DNA of 64,000 nt from Candidatus Saccharimonadota bacterium. GTDB lineage: Bacteria; Patescibacteriota; Saccharimonadia; Saccharimonadales; Saccharimonadaceae. Below, piece by piece: positions 4,385 to 51,587 of the stretch. The first letter of the stretch is position 1. Every line of letters starts with the position of its first letter. A program made the translations under genes and the position numbers. The stretch lies in assembly GCA_017510705.1 (NCBI GenBank), contig JAFWMO010000010.1, positions 8,678 through 72,677 on the forward strand. The letters run 5' to 3'. Under the pieces are notes generated by a model. The model saw only the letters and a list, made by a program, of their open reading frames with translations. It was not told where the DNA came from and ran no database searches.

Positions 4385-4732
4385 ATGAGAGTAAAACGCG
4401 GCGTGGCTGCACACGCAAAACACAAGAAGATTTTAAACGCTGCGAAGGGCATGCAACATGCACGCACCCGCAGTTTCCGCCTAGGTAATCAAGGCGTAAT
4501 CAAGGCTCTTCGCTATTCTTATCGCGATCGTCGCAATAAAAAGCGCGACCTTAGAGCTCTTTGGATTACTCGCATCAACAATGCATCAAGAGAACTTGGT
4601 CTTTCCTACTCTCAGCTTATCGCTGGCATGAAGGCAAAGAATATCAATCTCGATCGCAAAGTTCTTGCTGACCTTGCTGTAAACAATCCTGAGGCATTCA
4701 AAGCAATCGTTAATACGGTAAAGGAGAAATAA
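4385..4732 (+). CDS. rplT: ribosomal protein L20
   Basis: [17 protein letters not shown]... signature; infC-rpmI-rplT order. Confidence 0.95.
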
Positions 4733-41727: not shown

Positions 41728-44124
41728 TTATAGTTCGCCCCAATTTTGGCCTTGAGATATTTCTACAACCAATTTGACGTTTAGCTCTGGAGCGACGGGC
41801 TCCATTTTGTTTTTAAGAATCTTGGTAACTTCGTCTGCGATATTTTCATCACATTCTACGATAAGAGAGTCGTGAACTTGCATGATTAGCTCGGCTCCAT
41901 CTGGGAGAGCTTTGTCTACGGCGATCATTGCGCGCTTCATAAGATCCGCCTCGGTGCCCTGAATTGGCATATTGGCGGCGGCACGTTCCGCAGCTTGGCG
42001 AATAAGGAAGTTTGGCGAACTTACATCTGGGGTAGGACGGCGGCGACCGTAAAAAGTCTCCACATAGCCTTCGTTTTTGGCCTGAGCCAAAATATCTTCT
42101 AGCTTTTTCTTGATAGGGGCGCGGAGCTTGAAATAATCTTCTATAAAGGTCTTGGCTTCCGCCATAGACATACCGGTAGCGTCCGAAAGTCCTTTCATAC
42201 TCATACCATAGAGTACGCCAAAATTAATAGTCTTGGCGGCGCGACGCTGGTTTTTGGTGACTTCGGTAAGTGGGACATGAAAAGCTTCGGAGGCGGTTTT
42301 GGTGTGAATATCTATATCGTTGTTGAAATCGTCAATTAGGGCTTGATCACTAGATAGGACAGCTGCGAGACGGAGTTCAAACTGCGAATAATCAGCAGAG
42401 ACCAAAACTTTGCCACGAGGAGCAATAAAACCAGTACGAATACGCTTCCCCTCTTCTGTGCGCACTGGGATATTTTGGAGATTTGGGCTAACCGAACTAA
42501 GGCGGCCAGTGGCGGTGACATTTTGCGTAAAGGTGGTATGGACACGACCATTCTTGTCTGCCAAGTCTGACATCGGCATAATGTAGGTGGAAAGAAGTTT
42601 TGCGGCCTCGCGGTATTCGATAAGCTTTGGAATAATTGGATGTACATCTTTTAGTTTTTCAAGCTCTTTGGCGCCAGTAGAGTAACCACGCGTGGTTTTT
42701 TTGATGCCTTTAGTAGGGAGAGCTAAATCTGTAAATAACACTTCGGAAAGTTGTGCTGGGGAGTTGACGTTAAATTCTTTGCCAGCAAGTGCGCAGACTT
42801 CTGTTTCTAATTTTTTGACGATACTTTCATATTCTTTTTCTAGTGACTTGAAATAAGCGCGATCTATGAGCATTCCCTTTTCTTCCATTTTGTAGAGGAC
42901 TGGAATAAGTGGAAGGTCAAAATTTAAAAGTACATCTAGGAGTTTTGGTGTACGTTCTAAAATCGTGAGTTGCTCATGGTAGGCAAAGGCGAAATCTTCT
43001 GGAGCTTCGTCGCTCCTAGAAAGAGGGTTGATGAGGAAAGCGGCTTGAGAGAGGTCCCAAAAGGGCACGCCGGACAAAATCTTTTTGGCAACTGTCTCGT
43101 CTGAATGCATCAAACTCTTGATGTCCCAATCGATGATGGCTGGCGGGGCCTGGCGCTCACCCGCTATCTCGGACTGCGTCGCCTTGCCAGGCTCCGGAGG
43201 CCCGTCGATGGCGGGCTGAGTGCCACCCGCCACACCCTCTTCGCCGCCCGGCACAGATATCTTGCGGATGAGGGAGTTGAATTCAAGTTTTTTGAGGCCG
43301 GAGATGGTACGGTCTCGATCAAAAACAAAATCTGGGATTTTGGCAAGGTCTACAGGGGCGTCAAACATAATCTTTGCGAGTTCGCGAGACATGTAGGCGG
43401 AATTTTTTCCTGCTTCAAGTTTGGTCCGGACTGAACCAGAAATTTGTTCAATGTGTTCGTAAATGCCATCTAGGGTGCCAAAATCATTTAATAATTTGGC
43501 GGCGGTTTTTTCGCCAATGCCTGGAACCCCTGGAATGTTATCGGAAGAATCACCCTTCAAGGCTTTGAGGTCTAAGAACTGAGATTTTTTGATACCATAT
43601 TTTTCTTCTAGCTCTGGGACATTTATTTGTTCAATATTGGTAAAACCTTTTAAGATGCGCCACATGTGAGTGTTGCTATCTACGATCTGAAGCATATCAA
43701 GATCGGAAGAAATGATGAAAGTCTCGTACTCGCAAAATCCGTCTGGGCCTACAGTCTCATCAGCCTCACGACTAAGCGTGCCAATGATGTCATCTGCTTC
43801 GTAATTGTCAATTTCTACGAAAGCCCAACCAAGGTTTTTGATTAGCTCTTTTAGTAGTGGAATTTGAGCATAAAAATCATCTCCAGGTTTTACTCTGCCG
43901 GCTTTGTAATCTGCATAAATTGCACGACGACGCGAGACGGAAGTTTTGGAATCCCAAGCTACTACAACTTTGGTAGGATTTAATTTTTTGACGATTTCCA
44001 TGGCAATGGCCGCAAAACCATAAATGCCACCAGTAGGCGTGCCATCTGGCAAACTAAGTGCCCCCATAGCATAATAACCTCTATAGAAAACAGATTTGCC
44101 GTCGATAAGAACTAAACGCTTCAT
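41728..44124 (-). CDS. polA: DNA polymerase I
   Basis: 5' nuclease domain (LIDGKSVFYRGYYA), polymerase motifs A, B and C (DYSQFELR, RRAAKTINFGVLYG, QVHDSL). Confidence 0.9.
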   Translation of the reverse strand: MKRLVLIDGKSVFYRGYYAMGALSLPDGTPTGGIYGFAAIAMEIVKKLNPTKVVVAWDSKTSVSRRRAIYADYKAGRVKPGDDFYAQIPLLKELIKNLGWAFVEIDNYEADDIIGTLSREADETVGPDGFCEYETFIISSDLDMLQIVDSNTHMWRILKGFTNIEQINVPELEEKYGIKKSQFLDLKALKGDSSDNIPGVPGIGEKTAAKLLNDFGTLDGIYEHIEQISGSVRTKLEAGKNSAYMSRELAKIMFDAPVDLAKIPDFVFDRDRTISGLKKLEFNSLIRKISVPGGEEGVAGGTQPAIDGPPEPGKATQSEIAGERQAPPAIIDWDIKSLMHSDETVAKKILSGVPFWDLSQAAFLINPLSRSDEAPEDFAFAYHEQLTILERTPKLLDVLLNFDLPLIPVLYKMEEKGMLIDRAYFKSLEKEYESIVKKLETEVCALAGKEFNVNSPAQLSEVLFTDLALPTKGIKKTTRGYSTGAKELEKLKDVHPIIPKLIEYREAAKLLSTYIMPMSDLADKNGRVHTTFTQNVTATGRLSSVSPNLQNIPVRTEEGKRIRTGFIAPRGKVLVSADYSQFELRLAAVLSSDQALIDDFNNDIDIHTKTASEAFHVPLTEVTKNQRRAAKTINFGVLYGMSMKGLSDATGMSMAEAKTFIEDYFKLRAPIKKKLEDILAQAKNEGYVETFYGRRRPTPDVSSPNFLIRQAAERAAANMPIQGTEADLMKRAMIAVDKALPDGAELIMQVHDSLIVECDENIADEVTKILKNKMEPVAPELNVKLVVEISQGQNWGEL
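43140..43252. repeat. GC-rich palindromic element inserted in frame in polA (family member A)
   Basis: There is an abrupt GC-rich block inside AT-richer coding sequence. Its arms are GGCGCTCACCCGC and GCGGGCTGAGTGCC. It shares an identical 25-mer, TCGCCTTGCCAGGCTCCGGAGGCCC, with 51540..51564. Confidence 0.7.
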
Positions 44125-46554: not shown

Positions 46555-48111
46555 CTATTTAGCGATGCAACGGACGGAGCGACCGTAGGTACGGTAGTAA
46601 CTATATTGTGGAAAGATATCGCTAGTATTCATACGAAGACCATACATGTTGTTGCTATTGTAACGTGTAGATGACCAAAAGTAGCCGAAAGATCCCCTAT
46701 AAAGTACCGTATCATTGAGGAAGTAACCCGAAAGAGGAAAACGACCGGCGTTACGAAAATTAGTATAAGCTGGATTGCCAGCAATGTCGCCAGTAGCACC
46801 AGAAATGGCATTAGCCAGTTTCTGGTATTCACCGCCACCCTTATTGGTGCCAGAATTCGCAATGGCCCCGCCAGTAGGCATACGCCAGCCAAATGGGCAA
46901 ACATCTTCGTCGGCATCTATGGCGGAGCTAGGGCTATCATAATTAGTACCAGATTCTGTCCCGTCGCCATAGCAATATGAGCCAGCACTAGCAGCACAAT
47001 AATTATAGTATCCACCCGCTTTCCATTGGCCGATATTGTCTAAGCCACCACCATTGGAGCCGGTGTAGATGTAATTCTTATTGGACACATTGATAAGAGG
47101 CGCAGAGTAACTAGTAGAACCATTCCAGTTGGTAGAGACTGCAGCTGTGGCATATTTGCCACTAGCATCTGTAGCCGGGTCACGTGGCGGGGTAGTACCA
47201 AATAAGTATCCAAGTGAAGTATCTGTGGCATTAGTATTGGTACTGTCCATAATGGATTGGACATTGGAATTGGTGAGGTCTATGGCTAAGTTGTCTAGTA
47301 ACCAGCAGCGGTTGTCTGCTAATTTGCCTACGTTGTAGACGGCTTCGTCGCGAGTATCAATGAGTTTGATGATAGGAGTTTCGCCATTCAAGCGCGTTAC
47401 GGAATTACAAATAGACGTACTCATGTCTTGCATTTTGTAATAGCCCTTGAATTTTGTAACACCTTGCACCGCGCTAAAAGCGTCGTGAAAAGAAACTGGA
47501 GCGGGATTGGCGACGACTGCAAAATTAATTGTATTAGTGTACTCACCCGGGTCAATATCATCACTGGCCTTGGCGGCAATACGAAAATTAAGCCCTGTGA
47601 GAACGGCAGAATCTACGGAAAAGATGGGATTAAGAGTATTGGTAAGACCATTATAATTAGACCACGCACCTGGATCGCCAGCTTTTTCGGTGCTAGTGCC
47701 ATTGCCAGCAAAAGTGCTAGCTTTGATACTATATCCCCAAGTGTCATCCGTGATTAATGTGCCCAGGTCTGCGTCTGCGGCAATACTAGAAAATTTTGAA
47801 GTAGTGCCAGTCTGGGTGAGATCCGAGGTAGTGCTACTAGTGGATGCAGAGACAACATACCCAGAGACATTGTTGCTTTCCACATTAAGAGTTACAATGT
47901 TGCTACTACGAGTGGCACCTGGAGTGATATCGTGAATATAAATATCATTGCTGGAAAGTGTGGCGGTGAGGGTGGGATTTAATGTGAACTGAATTTCTAC
48001 ATCAGCAGAGCCACTTTCGCCAGTTGCTCTAGCCTCATTAATATACACACTACTACATAACGTAGGAAAAAGTAGTAGTGTGCATATTGATAGGGCTAGT
48101 CTACGCTTCAT
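46555..48111 (-). CDS. secreted protein with C-terminal Fibrobacter-succinogenes-paralogous (FISUMP, TIGR02145-like) domain
   Basis: Signal peptide, and a C-terminal region with CWLLDNL, FGWRMPT, GYFWSST and GRSVRCI motifs. Confidence 0.65.
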   Translation of the reverse strand: MKRRLALSICTLLLFPTLCSSVYINEARATGESGSADVEIQFTLNPTLTATLSSNDIYIHDITPGATRSSNIVTLNVESNNVSGYVVSASTSSTTSDLTQTGTTSKFSSIAADADLGTLITDDTWGYSIKASTFAGNGTSTEKAGDPGAWSNYNGLTNTLNPIFSVDSAVLTGLNFRIAAKASDDIDPGEYTNTINFAVVANPAPVSFHDAFSAVQGVTKFKGYYKMQDMSTSICNSVTRLNGETPIIKLIDTRDEAVYNVGKLADNRCWLLDNLAIDLTNSNVQSIMDSTNTNATDTSLGYLFGTTPPRDPATDASGKYATAAVSTNWNGSTSYSAPLINVSNKNYIYTGSNGGGLDNIGQWKAGGYYNYCAASAGSYCYGDGTESGTNYDSPSSAIDADEDVCPFGWRMPTGGAIANSGTNKGGGEYQKLANAISGATGDIAGNPAYTNFRNAGRFPLSGYFLNDTVLYRGSFGYFWSSTRYNSNNMYGLRMNTSDIFPQYSYYRTYGRSVRCIAK

Positions 48112-48306: not shown

Positions 48307-49107
48307 TTAAATAGTCAAGAGATATTCAATCTTGGCGTTGCGACGAGCGTCGTCGTCTGCTTTTGGCAAATCTTCCCTACTGGAATAATCTTCAAAGATT
48401 GGAAGGACGTTTTTGATCTCACCGTCATAAATTGGTGGCTTGTCGTAAACGCTCCAGAGGATAATGCGGAGACTTGGTGCGTTTTTGGCATAAAATTCTA
48501 GAGCTTTGGAAGTGGCACGGATAAACTCCTGCTCGGTTTCTCTAGAATGGCGCCAAGCGCGGCCAGAAAGATATTTTTCGGTGACTACTGGAGAAATCGC
48601 AATCATCAAAATTGTTGCTTCGTAATTCCCTGCTATGAGTAGCTCTAGCAAGATGCCTTCCATTTCTGGATCTAGAAGCGTAACATCTAGGACAATGTCA
48701 TATCCACCTTTGATGAGCTCGGACAAAGTAAGAAATAGCATGATGGTGCTAAACTCGTCTGTCATTTTGCGAAGGTTTTCGTCGCCGTAGTAATCTTTGA
48801 TTTCTTGGTAGTGCGGGTGATATTCCACAAAGCGACGTGCAGCCATTAGAATCGGCTCAAAATTATTTTTTTCACAGTAGGCTTCTACGGCTGGGAGAAT
48901 TTGAGTAGTCTTGCCAGAGCCAGAGAGCCCTGCGATACGGATAAAACGGTGGTTTTTGGTGGCGGCAATCGTAAAATCTTCTACCACCTTTTTGAGAATG
49001 GCTGGATATTCGGCAAGCCCAACTTGCCACTCTGGCTTGACCTCGCTTGGCCAGTGAGCTCGCATATATTCTATAACTTTGACTAACCGTGGATCACTTT
49101 GAGACAT
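48307..49107 (-). CDS. zeta-toxin-like P-loop kinase family protein
   Basis: IAGLSGSGKTT Walker A; size and pattern resemble the zeta toxin / AAA kinase fold. This is weak. Confidence 0.4.
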   Translation of the reverse strand: MSQSDPRLVKVIEYMRAHWPSEVKPEWQVGLAEYPAILKKVVEDFTIAATKNHRFIRIAGLSGSGKTTQILPAVEAYCEKNNFEPILMAARRFVEYHPHYQEIKDYYGDENLRKMTDEFSTIMLFLTLSELIKGGYDIVLDVTLLDPEMEGILLELLIAGNYEATILMIAISPVVTEKYLSGRAWRHSRETEQEFIRATSKALEFYAKNAPSLRIILWSVYDKPPIYDGEIKNVLPIFEDYSSREDLPKADDDARRNAKIEYLLTI

Positions 49108-50060
49108 TTGTCACCTTTTTTAATTTCAATAGTTTTGATATTTTTAAACACTCTGTACTCACCTTCGGCCTGGAGCTCTACTGTGGCGGGCTTTAAAAAT
49201 TCTAACTTGTCGCCAGTGGTTTCTTCTCCTGGCGTACGGACAAAAATCGCTTTTACCATTAGTACGAATAGTCTTGGAAAACTGGTGAGTTTGCGATTCA
49301 TACTGCGAAAAATTTTTGGTTTCAAATAATCATCTCCACCTTTCATCACACGACACATGGACTTGCCGGAAAGCGCGCAATAATCGCTGGCCTTTTTTTC
49401 TGCAGGCTTGCCATTAATGGTAAATGGTGGGATAAAAACTTTTTTGTGGCGGTTTTTGAAATACCATTTTGAAAGAGCAAGATAAGAGCGCCAGGAAGAT
49501 TTGGAACCTTTTTGCATTTTTTTTCTGAATTTTGGCTCATCAAAAATCTCACAGACTTCGGCGGTCATGCCGATGGTCATGTAGCAGGACGCATAGCGGA
49601 AAAACTTGCCATCCACATAAATCTCGAGAGGATATAACCTCTGGACGGGGCCTGCCACACATTTTCCCCCAAATCCGCAGGTCCCAGGGTCCCCCTTATG
49701 TGTGTCACCCGTCCATGTTTCTATTATCTTGAAAAGTTTATCTGTACTCATCGTTCCGAGAGTGCGGGCGAGGTCGTTGAAATTGCCGTATGGGAGGACA
49801 GCAAGTGTGGCGTCTTTGCCAGATTTCAAAATACCATTGGATGCGATAATGCCAGTAGCATCACCGCCGGCAGAAAGCACCAAATCACCATCTTTTAGGA
49901 GCTTGGCAAACTTGGCGGCGTTTTTGTCTACGTCGGTAGGCTCAACTTCGTATTTGCCAATGATAAAACCCTTTAATTCCCTGGCTTTTGACAGAACTTC
50001 TTTTTCTACATCAACAAAACGAGACGAGCGGGGATTGTAAACAATGAGAAGACGGCGCAT
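49083..50060 (-). CDS. diacylglycerol/lipid kinase family protein (DAGK_cat, YegS-like)
   Basis: LLIVYNPRSS start, and the motifs LSAGGDATG and LPYGNFNDLARTLG. Confidence 0.65.
   Translation of the reverse strand: MRRLLIVYNPRSSRFVDVEKEVLSKARELKGFIIGKYEVEPTDVDKNAAKFAKLLKDGDLVLSAGGDATGIIASNGILKSGKDATLAVLPYGNFNDLARTLGTMSTDKLFKIIETWTGDTHKGDPGTCGFGGKCVAGPVQRLYPLEIYVDGKFFRYASCYMTIGMTAEVCEIFDEPKFRKKMQKGSKSSWRSYLALSKWYFKNRHKKVFIPPFTINGKPAEKKASDYCALSGKSMCRVMKGGDDYLKPKIFRSMNRKLTSFPRLFVLMVKAIFVRTPGEETTGDKLEFLKPATVELQAEGEYRVFKNIKTIEIKKGDKCLKVIHG
49643..49714. repeat. GC-rich palindromic element inserted in frame in the lipid kinase gene (family member D)
   Basis: Arms GGACGGGGCCTGCCACACAT and ATGTGTGTCACCCGTCC. 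72 nt equals 24 codons. The terminal motif GACGGGGCCTGCC resembles GGCGGGGCCTGGC of the polA element. Confidence 0.6.
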
Positions 50061-50068
50061 GAGATGTC

Positions 50069-50449
50069 CTATGATGATGGGTTATATGCAGGCAAAAGCC
50101 ATTTGAGAATAGCGTAAAGCACAACATAGGCAGCAACACCAATGACGATTTCTAGCATGCGACGCTTGGCTTTGCGAGTTTGCTCCTCGCTGCCACCAGC
50201 GGTGAGATATTGAATACCAACGATAGTGATGCCAATAGCGGCAAGGATACCGACACCAACGGTGAGGATGTCAACAACAGTTGTAAGAATATCAGTAATT
50301 GAACTGCCTTTACCGTCATCACATACACAGCCATCTTTGCCTAATATTGCTGTCTGTACGCAACCTTCTGGGCATTCAGCAAAAACTGGAGCAGCCATCA
50401 TAAACCCGCCCATAATAACTGCGATAAGTGATAACAAAAGTTTTTTCAT
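50069..50449 (-). CDS. small cysteine-rich secreted/membrane protein, TrbC/VirB2-pilin-like topology (tentative)
   Basis: Signal peptide, the CPEGC..CVC cluster, two hydrophobic helices separated by GGSEEQTRKAKRR; GGAGG SD. Confidence 0.4.
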   Translation of the reverse strand: MKKLLLSLIAVIMGGFMMAAPVFAECPEGCVQTAILGKDGCVCDDGKGSSITDILTTVVDILTVGVGILAAIGITIVGIQYLTAGGSEEQTRKAKRRMLEIVIGVAAYVVLYAILKWLLPAYNPSS

Positions 50450-50457
50450 ATACCTCC

Positions 50458-51432
50458 TTACCTTAGATATTCGTGTAGTTTTTTGGTGTCTTTGTTTTTG
50501 CGAAGTTTAGAAAGGGCTTTGGCTTCAATCTGACGGATACGCTCACGAGTAACATCAAATTCGTTGCCAACTTCTTCTAGAGTGTGCGGACGACCACCGC
50601 CGATGCCAAAGCGAAGGCGGATGATTTTTTGTTCCCTTTCGGTGAGAGTGGCAATAATTTCGGACAATTGTTCCTTCAAAATTTGGTTTGCGGCGGAATC
50701 TTCTGGGGAGTCGCGCTCCTCGTCTTCTACGAAATCACCAAGCACGGAATCCTCGTCGTCGCCCTCGCGACCAACAGAAGCATCTAACGAGGCGATATCT
50801 TGTTTGATGCGCATCACATAATCCACCTTTTCTGGCTCCATGTCGAGTTCCTTGGCGATTTCTTCGTTGGTAGGCTCACGGTTTAATTCTGAGGTGAGTT
50901 TGCGAGTAGTACGAAGGACTTTGTTGATGGTTTCTACCATATGCACTGGAATACGAATGGTGCGGGCTTGATCTGCAATAGCACGAGTAATAGCTTGGCG
51001 AACCCACCAAGTAGCATAAGTAGAAAACTTAAAACCTTTGGCTGGATCAAATTTTTCTACGGCGCGGAGGAGACCGGTGTTTCCCTCTTGGATAAGATCA
51101 AGAAAATCTAGACCGCGGCCACCATAACGCTTGGCGATAGAAACCACAAGACGCATGTTTGACTCTACCATTTTGTCTTTGGCTTTTTTGTCACCCTTTA
51201 CGATACGCTGAGCGAGATCGGCTTCTTCTTCTGGGGTAAGAAGTGGGATTTTGCCAATTTCGCGAAGGTATAATCTAACTGAATCATCTGCAAAAGCATC
51301 AACGTTTTCGGCGGTGATGGCAAGCTCTTCGTCCGAAAGCTCTTCTTCGCTTTCAAGGTCGTCTGTGCCAGGTTCGTCAAAATCAAAATTCAAGTCTTTT
51401 GCATTCAAAATATCATCATCTTTCAAGCTCAT
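50458..51432 (-). CDS. rpoD: RNA polymerase sigma-70 factor
   Basis: Regions 1.2 to 4.2 are present ([49 protein letters not shown]). The start is set at ATG 51432, directly behind the promoter. Confidence 0.9.
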
Positions 51433-51440
51433 TAATGTAG

Positions 51441-51469
51441 AGTATAGACTAAAAATAGAAATTTTGCAA
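51441..51469 (-). promoter_or_regulatory. rpoD promoter TTGCAA-17-TATACT, 8 nt upstream of the ATG
   Basis: The reverse complement reads TTGCAA, then 17 nt, then TATACT, then CTACATTA, then ATG. Confidence 0.6.
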
Positions 51470-51470
51470 G

Positions 51471-51587
51471 AGCGGACTAACGCGCCCGTCTTGGGCTGCG
51501 TCGCCTCGGCCCGTCGCCACGGGCGAGGCGCGCTCATCCTCGCCTTGCCAGGCTCCGGAGGCCCTGCGACGGGGCGTTAGCTCCGCT
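51471..51587. repeat. GC-rich palindromic element (family member B) between dnaG and rpoD; provides the dnaG stop codon
   Basis: 20-nt terminal inverted repeats AGCGGACTAACGCGCCCGTC and GACGGGGCGTTAGCTCCGCT. Internal hairpin CGCCTCGGCCCGT/ACGGGCGAGGCG. The 25-mer is shared with the polA element. Confidence 0.75.

Follow-up and report, generated by a model that had tools for sequence, protein, structure and literature searches.

What is a GC-rich palindrome doing, in frame, inside a lipid-kinase gene? The question is raised by a stretch of 64,000 nucleotides (nt) of Candidatus Saccharimonadota DNA (contig JAFWMO010000010.1; hereafter the window), in which a first-pass annotation, made from the sequence alone, had marked a block at 49643-49714 and had taken it for a member of a repeat family. 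Its letters, coordinates, arms, and encoded peptide (W116-V139) were as described, with the qualification that the true hairpin core extends one base further on each side, and kinase orthologs of 302 amino acids (aa) that are approximately 89% identical and lack the segment show that it is inserted, in frame, and not native to the kinase. Our results indicate, with a probability of roughly 0.78, that the block belongs to a family of dispersed, non-autonomous repeats, GC-rich and able to form a hairpin, that are common among the Saccharibacteria of ruminant guts (Nanosyncoccus-like genomes). The repeat family appears to be previously undescribed: literature searches for palindromic repeats, miniature transposable elements with inverted repeats (MITEs), or in-frame repeats in Saccharibacteria/Patescibacteria, and for the end sequences, found no paper that describes these elements. 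The host gene and the parts of the element are as follows.

49083..50060, minus strand: host gene, a DgkB/YegS-type lipid kinase of 325 aa (Pfam DAGK_cat PF00781, E 1.5e-11; Foldseek DgkB 2qvl, E 1.7e-13)
49639..49718, minus strand: whole element with its conserved flanks, as matched by a covariance model, the flank logo coming from 73 copies; encodes T115 to R141
49642-49715, minus strand: hairpin core, imperfect, GC-rich, and in frame
49708..49715, minus strand: 5' arm of outer stem P1 (TGGACGGG in sense), pairing with 49642-49649
49704-49707, minus strand: conserved unpaired UGAC, preceding the 5' arm of P2
49698..49703, minus strand: 5' arm of the hypervariable inner stem P2 (ACACAT)
49663..49697, minus strand: interior, a degenerate GGGGGACCC...TGGGGGAAA module plus a shortened apical part, from alignment to the model consensus and comparison with 69 other copies
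49657..49662, minus strand: 3' arm of P2 (ATGTGT)
49650-49656, minus strand: conserved unpaired GGCAGGC, directly after the 3' arm of P2
49642..49649, minus strand: 3' arm of P1 (CCCGTCCA in sense), partner of 49708-49715

The sense strand of the element reads ACA-TGGACGGG-UGAC-ACACAU...AUGUGU-GGCAGGC-CCCGUCCA-GAG. The arms first proposed, GGACGGGGCCTGCCACACAT and ATGTGTGTCACCCGTCC, pair as TGGACGGG/CCCGTCCA (8 bp) and ACACAT/ATGTGT, with a 3-nt asymmetry between them, and the GC content of the element is 0.60, versus 0.43-0.44 in the surrounding 2 kb. The shuffled controls named in the first-pass annotation gave little: the z score of the folding energy was -1.55 for RNA, with 13 of 200 shuffles folding equally well, and -2.06 for DNA, with 5 of 200 doing so. 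Since folding energy alone is weak, borderline evidence for a palindrome, the case for the element is built on comparative evidence, which supersedes the shuffle test and in which family membership is decisive. Specifically, a covariance model built from 40 copies in other genomes, with the window copy left out, matched 49636-49718 on the minus strand over its full span (positions 1-91 of 91) with 60.2 bits and an E value of 8.9e-12, while the opposite strand scored 7.7 bits. A strict pattern of the ends matched once in the window and never in 100 shuffles of it.

The proposed genome-wide census found many copies in other genes and genomes. It covered one genome per species and at least 119 stretches, and all copy counts given here are among the matches listed; approximately 70 of these are genuine copies in metagenome-assembled genomes (MAGs) of ruminant-gut Saccharibacteria or Nanosyncoccus, the remainder being chance matches in high-GC genomes or related elements of other phyla. 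The family has common ends, TGGRCGGGTGAC...GGCAGGACCCGYCCA, and the pattern CGGGTGAC N40-70 GGCAGGNCCCGYCC has a single match in the window (0 expected) and three matches in locus L007, one within the kinase, one upstream of a gene for a P-loop kinase, and one at the start of polA. The consensus extends to ACA-TGGR...YCCA-GAG, the flanks being conserved and non-complementary.

Comparison among copies demonstrates that the hairpin is maintained by strictly Watson-Crick covariation, with the sequence of the inner stem free to vary. Across 40 copies, 96% of cells were paired in the two basal helices, and the covariation score was 0.448, versus 0.128 in shuffles (none of 500 reached it) and at most 0.10 when partners were slid. 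In P1, paired at 98% in the same 40 copies, A-U to G-C double changes occurred in 16, while P2 took 45 distinct sequences in 70 copies, nearly all perfectly complementary; its four central pairs exhibited two-sided changes in 16-22 sequences and one-sided changes in none. G-U intermediates were essentially absent, so the constraint looks like one on pairing in DNA and is not what an RNA helix would typically show. At the hairpin foot, unpaired UGAC and GGCAGGA were invariant. In extended stems, the sense strand carried 11 G:T pairs against 2 A:C pairs, an excess that fits the sense strand as the one that folds. In Rfam 15, the window copy had no relevant match at E<=10, and eight loci drawn from six phyla had none at E<=1. 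A role for the variable stem as a guide to the flanking target was rejected, 4-mer sharing being no better than with permuted flanks (p = 0.16). Two matches in viral contigs were chance ones that lacked the hairpin structure. Further, truncated left halves of the element lie directly upstream of full copies in L041, L088, L100, and L115, an arrangement that suggests nested or adjacent insertions, and L113 has at 4552 a 46-nt mini-copy that lacks the interior.

The host protein is 100% identical to an NCBI Candidatus Saccharibacteria protein, and, by its Pfam match and its Foldseek matches to DgkB, SphK1, and YegS (E 1e-13 to 1e-10), it has the catalytic domain of diacylglycerol kinases (DAGKs) and the two-domain fold. 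Its AlphaFold2 model (pLDDT 87.5, pTM 0.88) places W116-V139 as coil between a helix at 106-115 and a strand at 139-142, with pLDDT below 50 at residues 121-135. The structure model, which had been suggested as a check for a surface loop, thus presents the segment as a low-confidence loop, and in this one modeled protein the insert is predicted to occupy a permissive loop between two well-predicted domains. Distant DAGKs in PDB (DgkB, YegS, BmrU) align without a comparable segment. In the 120 best orthologs, the form seen most often is 302 aa long and has a 17-aa linker (TKTFEDVFKKENKVKKL) joining the last helix of the catalytic domain to the LYPLE strand, where the window protein has 40 residues; it is the nearest orthologs, those approximately 89% identical, that lack the element. 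At the DNA level, filled and empty sites differ by an insertion, or by the exchange of a few codons of the linker. In the 90% identity cluster of the kinase, the insert is identical in all three full-length members and is consequently fixed in this species.

The linker is a hotspot. Elements of the same family occupy it in P0045, P0078, P0082, P0093, P0095, P0120, and other orthologs, a second palindromic family there encodes ...RDNGSEIASEPRNDGRERSGP..., and a third encodes ...GARPWRRAGRTQPE...; some linkers hold several elements in tandem or nested, with up to 101 residues, and others short remnants. Five of the kinase-site copies align on the coding strand as CA-TGGACGGGTGAC-[5-6 nt]-GGGGGACCCCC-[variable]-TGGGGGAAA-[complement]-GGCAGGACCCGTCCA-GA, and the changes in both of their stems are compensatory. 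By interior, the kinase-site copies fall into at least three subfamilies whose nearest relatives are copies in other genes (91-92% for the L007 kinase copy, versus 79%), and the L008 and L129 kinase copies use different entry frames. Because subfamilies and frames differ, the site has been hit, or the interior replaced, repeatedly, and a single ancestral insertion followed only by losses was rejected. The linker may be a hotspot through being AT-rich and permissive, through targeting of hairpins already present, or through recombination via the conserved foot.

Residence in open frames is the general habit of the family. Among 77 low-GC copies, 67 (87%) are intragenic and open-frame, placed inside open reading frames (ORFs) of at least 150 aa (50 sense, 17 antisense), and the other 10 are in intergenic sequence or short ORFs. 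Host genes include those for IleRS, ArgRS, PriA, exonuclease I, a methyltransferase, tRNA-guanine transglycosylase (TGT), and PolA. Copies are entered in either of two frames (WTGD.., HGRVT..) and left in any of three (AGPVQ, GRTRPE, RQDPS). Of the six frames, five are free of stop codons in 77-91% of copies, versus 46% in shuffles, and the sixth is always closed by the TGA of GGGTGAC. This openness suggests that the elements are read through as part of host proteins. Intein, intron, and intervening-sequence readings were rejected, the block being 24 codons, open-frame, and variable in frame, and so was a diversity-generating retroelement, there being no template repeat or reverse transcriptase nearby. 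Element load differs greatly between related genomes: the IleRS of L059 is 1121 aa long with approximately four inserts, versus 962 aa in the window. The ArgRS of L122 and L027, at approximately 660 aa versus 558 aa in the window, is another protein with several inserts from different families.

Loss of the element could also be followed. L129 and L128 differ by an in-frame deletion of 69 nt, bounded at the base of the hairpin by the direct repeat GACGG; the remainder, CATGGACGGCAGGACCCGTCCAG, encodes LHGRQDPSS, and the same footprint peptide occurs in P0047, P0049, and P0055. In these sequence comparisons, the element erodes by slippage-type deletion between short direct repeats, leaving in-frame footprints. 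For annotation of genomes from the Candidate Phyla Radiation (CPR), the family is a warning that such hairpins can give rise to varying gene lengths, false start codons, and broken contigs. At 12663-12742 of L007, a public gene call begins at an ATG inside a copy and reads through the in-frame TGA of GGGTGAC, while the true start of that gene (MDNVKILAI) lies downstream of the element; at the L007 polA start, the element itself may supply the start codon (...GAGGCGATGGCAGGACCC...). The kinase contig P0123 (a Logan contig of 1116 bp) ends inside the hairpin, with a gene call that opens on a false MTHFL; these palindromes appear to fragment assemblies.

The orientation of copies followed the strand asymmetry of the genome and not the direction of the host gene. 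In the 4 kb on each side, read on the sense strand of the element, GC skew was negative in 67 of the 72 distinct copies (binomial p 6e-15, a value that is optimistic, since the copies are phylogenetically non-independent). At third codon positions, GC skew (GC3 skew) was negative in 43 of the 45 genes hosting a sense copy (mean -0.38) and positive in 15 of the 15 hosting an antisense copy (mean +0.42), agreeing with copy orientation in 58 of 60. Non-overlapping ORFs of at least 250 aa had a GC3 skew of -0.32 when co-oriented with the element (n = 187) and +0.31 when anti-oriented (n = 117), and both sets had normal coding signatures at codon positions 1 and 2; with skews of opposite sign in the two sets, the lock cannot be an effect of gene direction. 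In the window, every minus-strand gene has a GC3 skew between -0.13 and -0.60, and the strand rich in C at third positions bears most genes, including rpoD, dnaG, polA, ftsZ, ftsA, IleRS, and ArgRS, for which reason it is probably the leading strand, with a non-canonical skew. In some CPR bacteria the rRNA-bearing strand is likewise C-rich (PMC7143001). If, as we infer, skew reports the direction of replication, the family has a bias relative to the replication strand (67/72 and 58/60) like that expected of repetitive extragenic palindromes with their tyrosine transposases (REP/REPIN-RAYT) or of IS200/IS605-derived elements. Third-position GC skew is approximately ±0.3 in the window and in loci L005-L129. 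From 5 to 57 kb of the window, approximately 85% of genes, many of them essential, are on the C-rich strand; near 57 kb gene direction flips but the skew does not.

These observations are best read as selfish DNA that host proteins tolerate in surface loops, whose single-stranded hairpin form would be recognized and which would probably spread, or be retained, in step with replication, by analogy with IS200/IS605-derived elements and REP/REPIN sequences, the encoded peptide itself having no function. Intergenic space being nearly absent in Saccharibacteria, genes would be the main home of the elements, and the survivors would be in-frame insertions in permissive loops. The near-absolute link between orientation and strand, combined with Watson-Crick covariation, makes such a single-strand, replication-coupled mechanism directly testable. 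Several points nevertheless weigh against reading the family as mobile selfish DNA. No transposase or other mobilizing gene was found, in what was a weak test (tblastn with IS608 TnpA and Escherichia coli RAYT queries, best E 0.68, over approximately 0.6 Mb of sampled DNA), and a parent insertion sequence (IS) with matching ends was absent from the 8-kb stretches around copies. There is no target-site duplication, the ACA and GAG flanks not being repeats of one another, and no exact insertion boundary is definable at the kinase sites; with 4-8 codons of the empty linker missing from filled sites, the comparison falls short of demonstrating a simple cut-and-paste insertion. Empty/filled polymorphism was not found within a species, so recent mobility has no support. 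Translation through the element is deduced from open frames, a C-rich leading strand fits PMC7143001 yet would be unusual, and the shared ancestry of the copies tempers the statistics of orientation.

How else might the locus be explained? The strand lock could be a product of selection after insertion, if the strand with the more stable hairpin were deleted when on the lagging-strand template, or if the G-rich sense strand carried polar motifs akin to KOPS, SRS, or Chi (GGGCGGG, GGGGGAGGAGAAGG) that can be borne in just one orientation relative to replication. Hairpin deletion between direct repeats is documented here, the sense strand is strongly G-rich with purine-rich loops, and the lock is nearly absolute in strongly skewed Saccharibacteria. 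We consider this doubtful, albeit far from negligible; it bears on the orientation bias only, is compatible with a selfish repeat, and finds no echo in other phyla, where no bias was detectable, though skews there were too weak to judge. Less probable by a clear step, and in our view unlikely, is a host role at the RNA level, in which a recruited regulatory module would form mRNA structure at the domain boundary and slow ribosomes or stabilize the transcript. Such a role would suit the position of the copy exactly at the junction of two domains, the predominance of sense over antisense copies (50 versus 17), and the excess of G:T over A:C pairs (11 versus 2) on the sense strand. The DNA strand, however, explains the orientation, as 15 of 15 antisense hosts are on the strand of opposite skew, and 17 copies are antisense to the gene while 10 are intergenic. 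Further, the 16-22 double changes against 0-1 one-sided changes in the variable stem are atypical for RNA helices, there is no Rfam match, and many unrelated elements occupy the same kinase site.

The remaining possibilities concern the kinase gene itself. That the insert is unchanged in three full-length cluster members, holds two cysteines, and leaves the kinase gene intact would be expected of a lineage-specific functional loop, for example a Cys-containing regulatory or binding loop in which palindromy is incidental. This is very improbable, given that copies of the DNA element stand in different reading frames, or reversed, and turn up both in genes for unrelated proteins and in intergenic sequence, that the peptide varies among copies while base pairing is kept, that the closest orthologs lack the insert, and that no ordered structure is modeled at it. 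A chance palindrome, or an inversion-duplication that arose in place, would agree with a folding energy only 1.5-2 standard deviations better than that of shuffles; it is scarcely credible in view of the full-length match to a model built from other genomes (E 8.9e-12) and of conserved unpaired nucleotides identical to those of approximately 70 other copies. A dispersed selfish repeat is accordingly the reading that we retain.

Two further GC-rich elements lie in the window.

43141..43232, minus strand: polA linker element of 92 nt, with the foot layout of the family and a different interior
51471..51587, plus strand: third GC-rich palindromic element, of 117 nt and another family, intergenic between dnaG and rpoD, with ends AGCGGACTAACGCGCCCGTC / GACGGGGCGTTAGCTCCGCT

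The first-pass annotation had assigned the kinase block to the same family as the polA element on the resemblance of their terminal motifs. What the two do have in common is the basal layout: on the coding strand, the polA element reads TGGCGGGTGGC-ACTCAG...CTGAGCG-CCAGGCCCCGCCA, and its foot comprises an outer stem, an asymmetric UGRC / GSCAGGM loop, and an inner stem; both arms have a matching 1-nt deletion. Membership itself found no support, the element being missed both by the hidden Markov model (HMM) of the family (nhmmer, E<=10) and by the covariance model (cmsearch, filters off, E<=10). Its interior shares a 33-nt core (91%) with the element upstream of rpoD, and on sequence grounds it is plausibly a distant or composite relative at most. 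In the linker between the 5'-nuclease and polymerase parts of PolA, the window has this element, L006 has none (an AT-rich linker), and L007 has a different one; the polA linker is in this sense a second insertion hotspot. Elsewhere in the window polA, a 6-residue block, TVGPDG, replaces the single alanine of ...ADEAGDYETF... and is possibly a footprint. The family of the third element occurs in L003, L046, L078, and L127, while the dnaG-rpoD gap of L001 is only 15 nt. The longest rpoD ORF (50458..51537) runs into the third element, which gives it a false N-terminal extension, and the real start is probably the Met at 51432. A peptide motif of this element, RPWRRAGRTQPE, also occurs within the kinase of P0085 and P0030.

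The surroundings of the kinase gene are stable, the order dnaG, rpoD, pilin, kinase, zeta-toxin-like gene being kept in every Saccharibacteria locus fetched. In the window (48307-50449), the zeta-toxin-like P-loop protein overlaps the 3' end of the kinase gene by 25 nt, and a TrbC/VirB2-type pilin lies on the other flank. An AT-rich inverted repeat at 48029-48099, with 28-nt arms (86% complementary) and a 15-nt spacer, is unrelated to the GC-rich elements; it sits in the 5' end of the ORF at 46555..48111 and encodes a signal-peptide-like N-terminus.

Beyond Saccharibacteria, the basal module recurs in multi-copy hairpins of two Gammaproteobacteria MAGs and of Omnitrophota, as well as in Planctomycetales, Nitrospirales, Solirubrobacterales, Rokubacteria, and Rectinemataceae MAGs and in an unclassified bacterium. 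Several of these copies share an apical GCGCAG-hairpin-GAGCAC module with one Saccharibacteria subfamily; as the search pattern did not demand this module, the kinship is not an artifact of how copies were retrieved. The other-phylum elements sit between housekeeping genes and exhibit no detectable orientation bias, local skews being too weak to judge. A RAYT beside them was sought and rejected: in L121, the 185-aa ORF with a copy on either side encodes a JAB-domain protein, and housekeeping genes make up the other neighbors. Tentatively, and with the odds against us, we suggest that the basal module GGGCGGG-UGAC...GGCAGGA-CCCGCCC and the apical GCGCAG-hairpin-GAGCAC define a cross-phylum superfamily of single-strand hairpin elements, moved by fork-coupled machinery, that would span Saccharibacteria, Gammaproteobacteria, Omnitrophota, Planctomycetales, Nitrospirales, and Solirubrobacterales, with the basal module only in Rokubacteria and Rectinemataceae. 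The conserved foot would then be a recognition or recombination handle that lets interiors swap, its presence across phyla would point to a recognition system that nobody has described, and the elements would be a major means by which essential proteins of gene-dense Saccharibacteria keep acquiring new loops.

Among known systems, REP/REPIN-RAYT (with its Y1 HUH enzyme) and IS200/IS605-derived elements resemble the family in being multi-copy single imperfect hairpins with a conserved unpaired foot, in lacking the signature of inverted repeats plus duplication, in being intergenic outside Saccharibacteria, and in a replication-strand bias of the sort that single-strand transposition predicts. 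The family differs in being 87% intragenic in Saccharibacteria and in having no GTAG-type head, and the DNA sampled around copies yielded neither a RAYT nor a TnpA gene, whole genomes being outside that search. With bacterial MITEs (Correia, ERIC, Nezha, and others), some of which insert in-frame, it shares small size, non-autonomy, and terminal inverted repeats, here the outer stem of 8-9 bp. Unlike them, it has no target-site duplication and no parent IS with matching ends within the 8-kb stretches, the whole element is one hairpin with a covarying inner stem, and its bias is linked to the strand. Mitochondrial GC clusters and double-hairpin elements of yeast and Allomyces are GC-rich palindromic mini-elements that occur in-frame in coding regions and at hotspots. 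The family is likewise GC-rich in an AT-richer genome, in-frame, and recurrent at hotspots, whereas those elements are organellar and unrelated in sequence, and we know of no strand lock reported for them.

The closest likeness in kind is to the Rickettsia palindromic elements (RPE), short dispersed hairpin repeats that are found in-frame in many essential genes. They were reportedly described by Ogata et al. in 2000. Both are short dispersed hairpin repeats that enter genes in-frame and in both orientations, leave essential genes unbroken, likely form a surface loop, have no known transposase or target duplication, and inhabit a reduced, host-dependent bacterium with a compact genome. The likeness is one of class features only, set beside RPE by description, with no sequence kinship known. 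The present family is distinguished by its Saccharibacteria/CPR host, its GC-richness in a 43% GC genome, its shorter length (70-85 nt), a covarying hypervariable inner stem, an orientation locked to strand composition, and a basal module common to intergenic repeats elsewhere. To our knowledge, textbooks treat in-frame selfish repeats almost exclusively as a Rickettsia matter; that Saccharibacteria have an abundant and distinct counterpart would mean that the phenomenon recurs in reduced, host-dependent bacteria.

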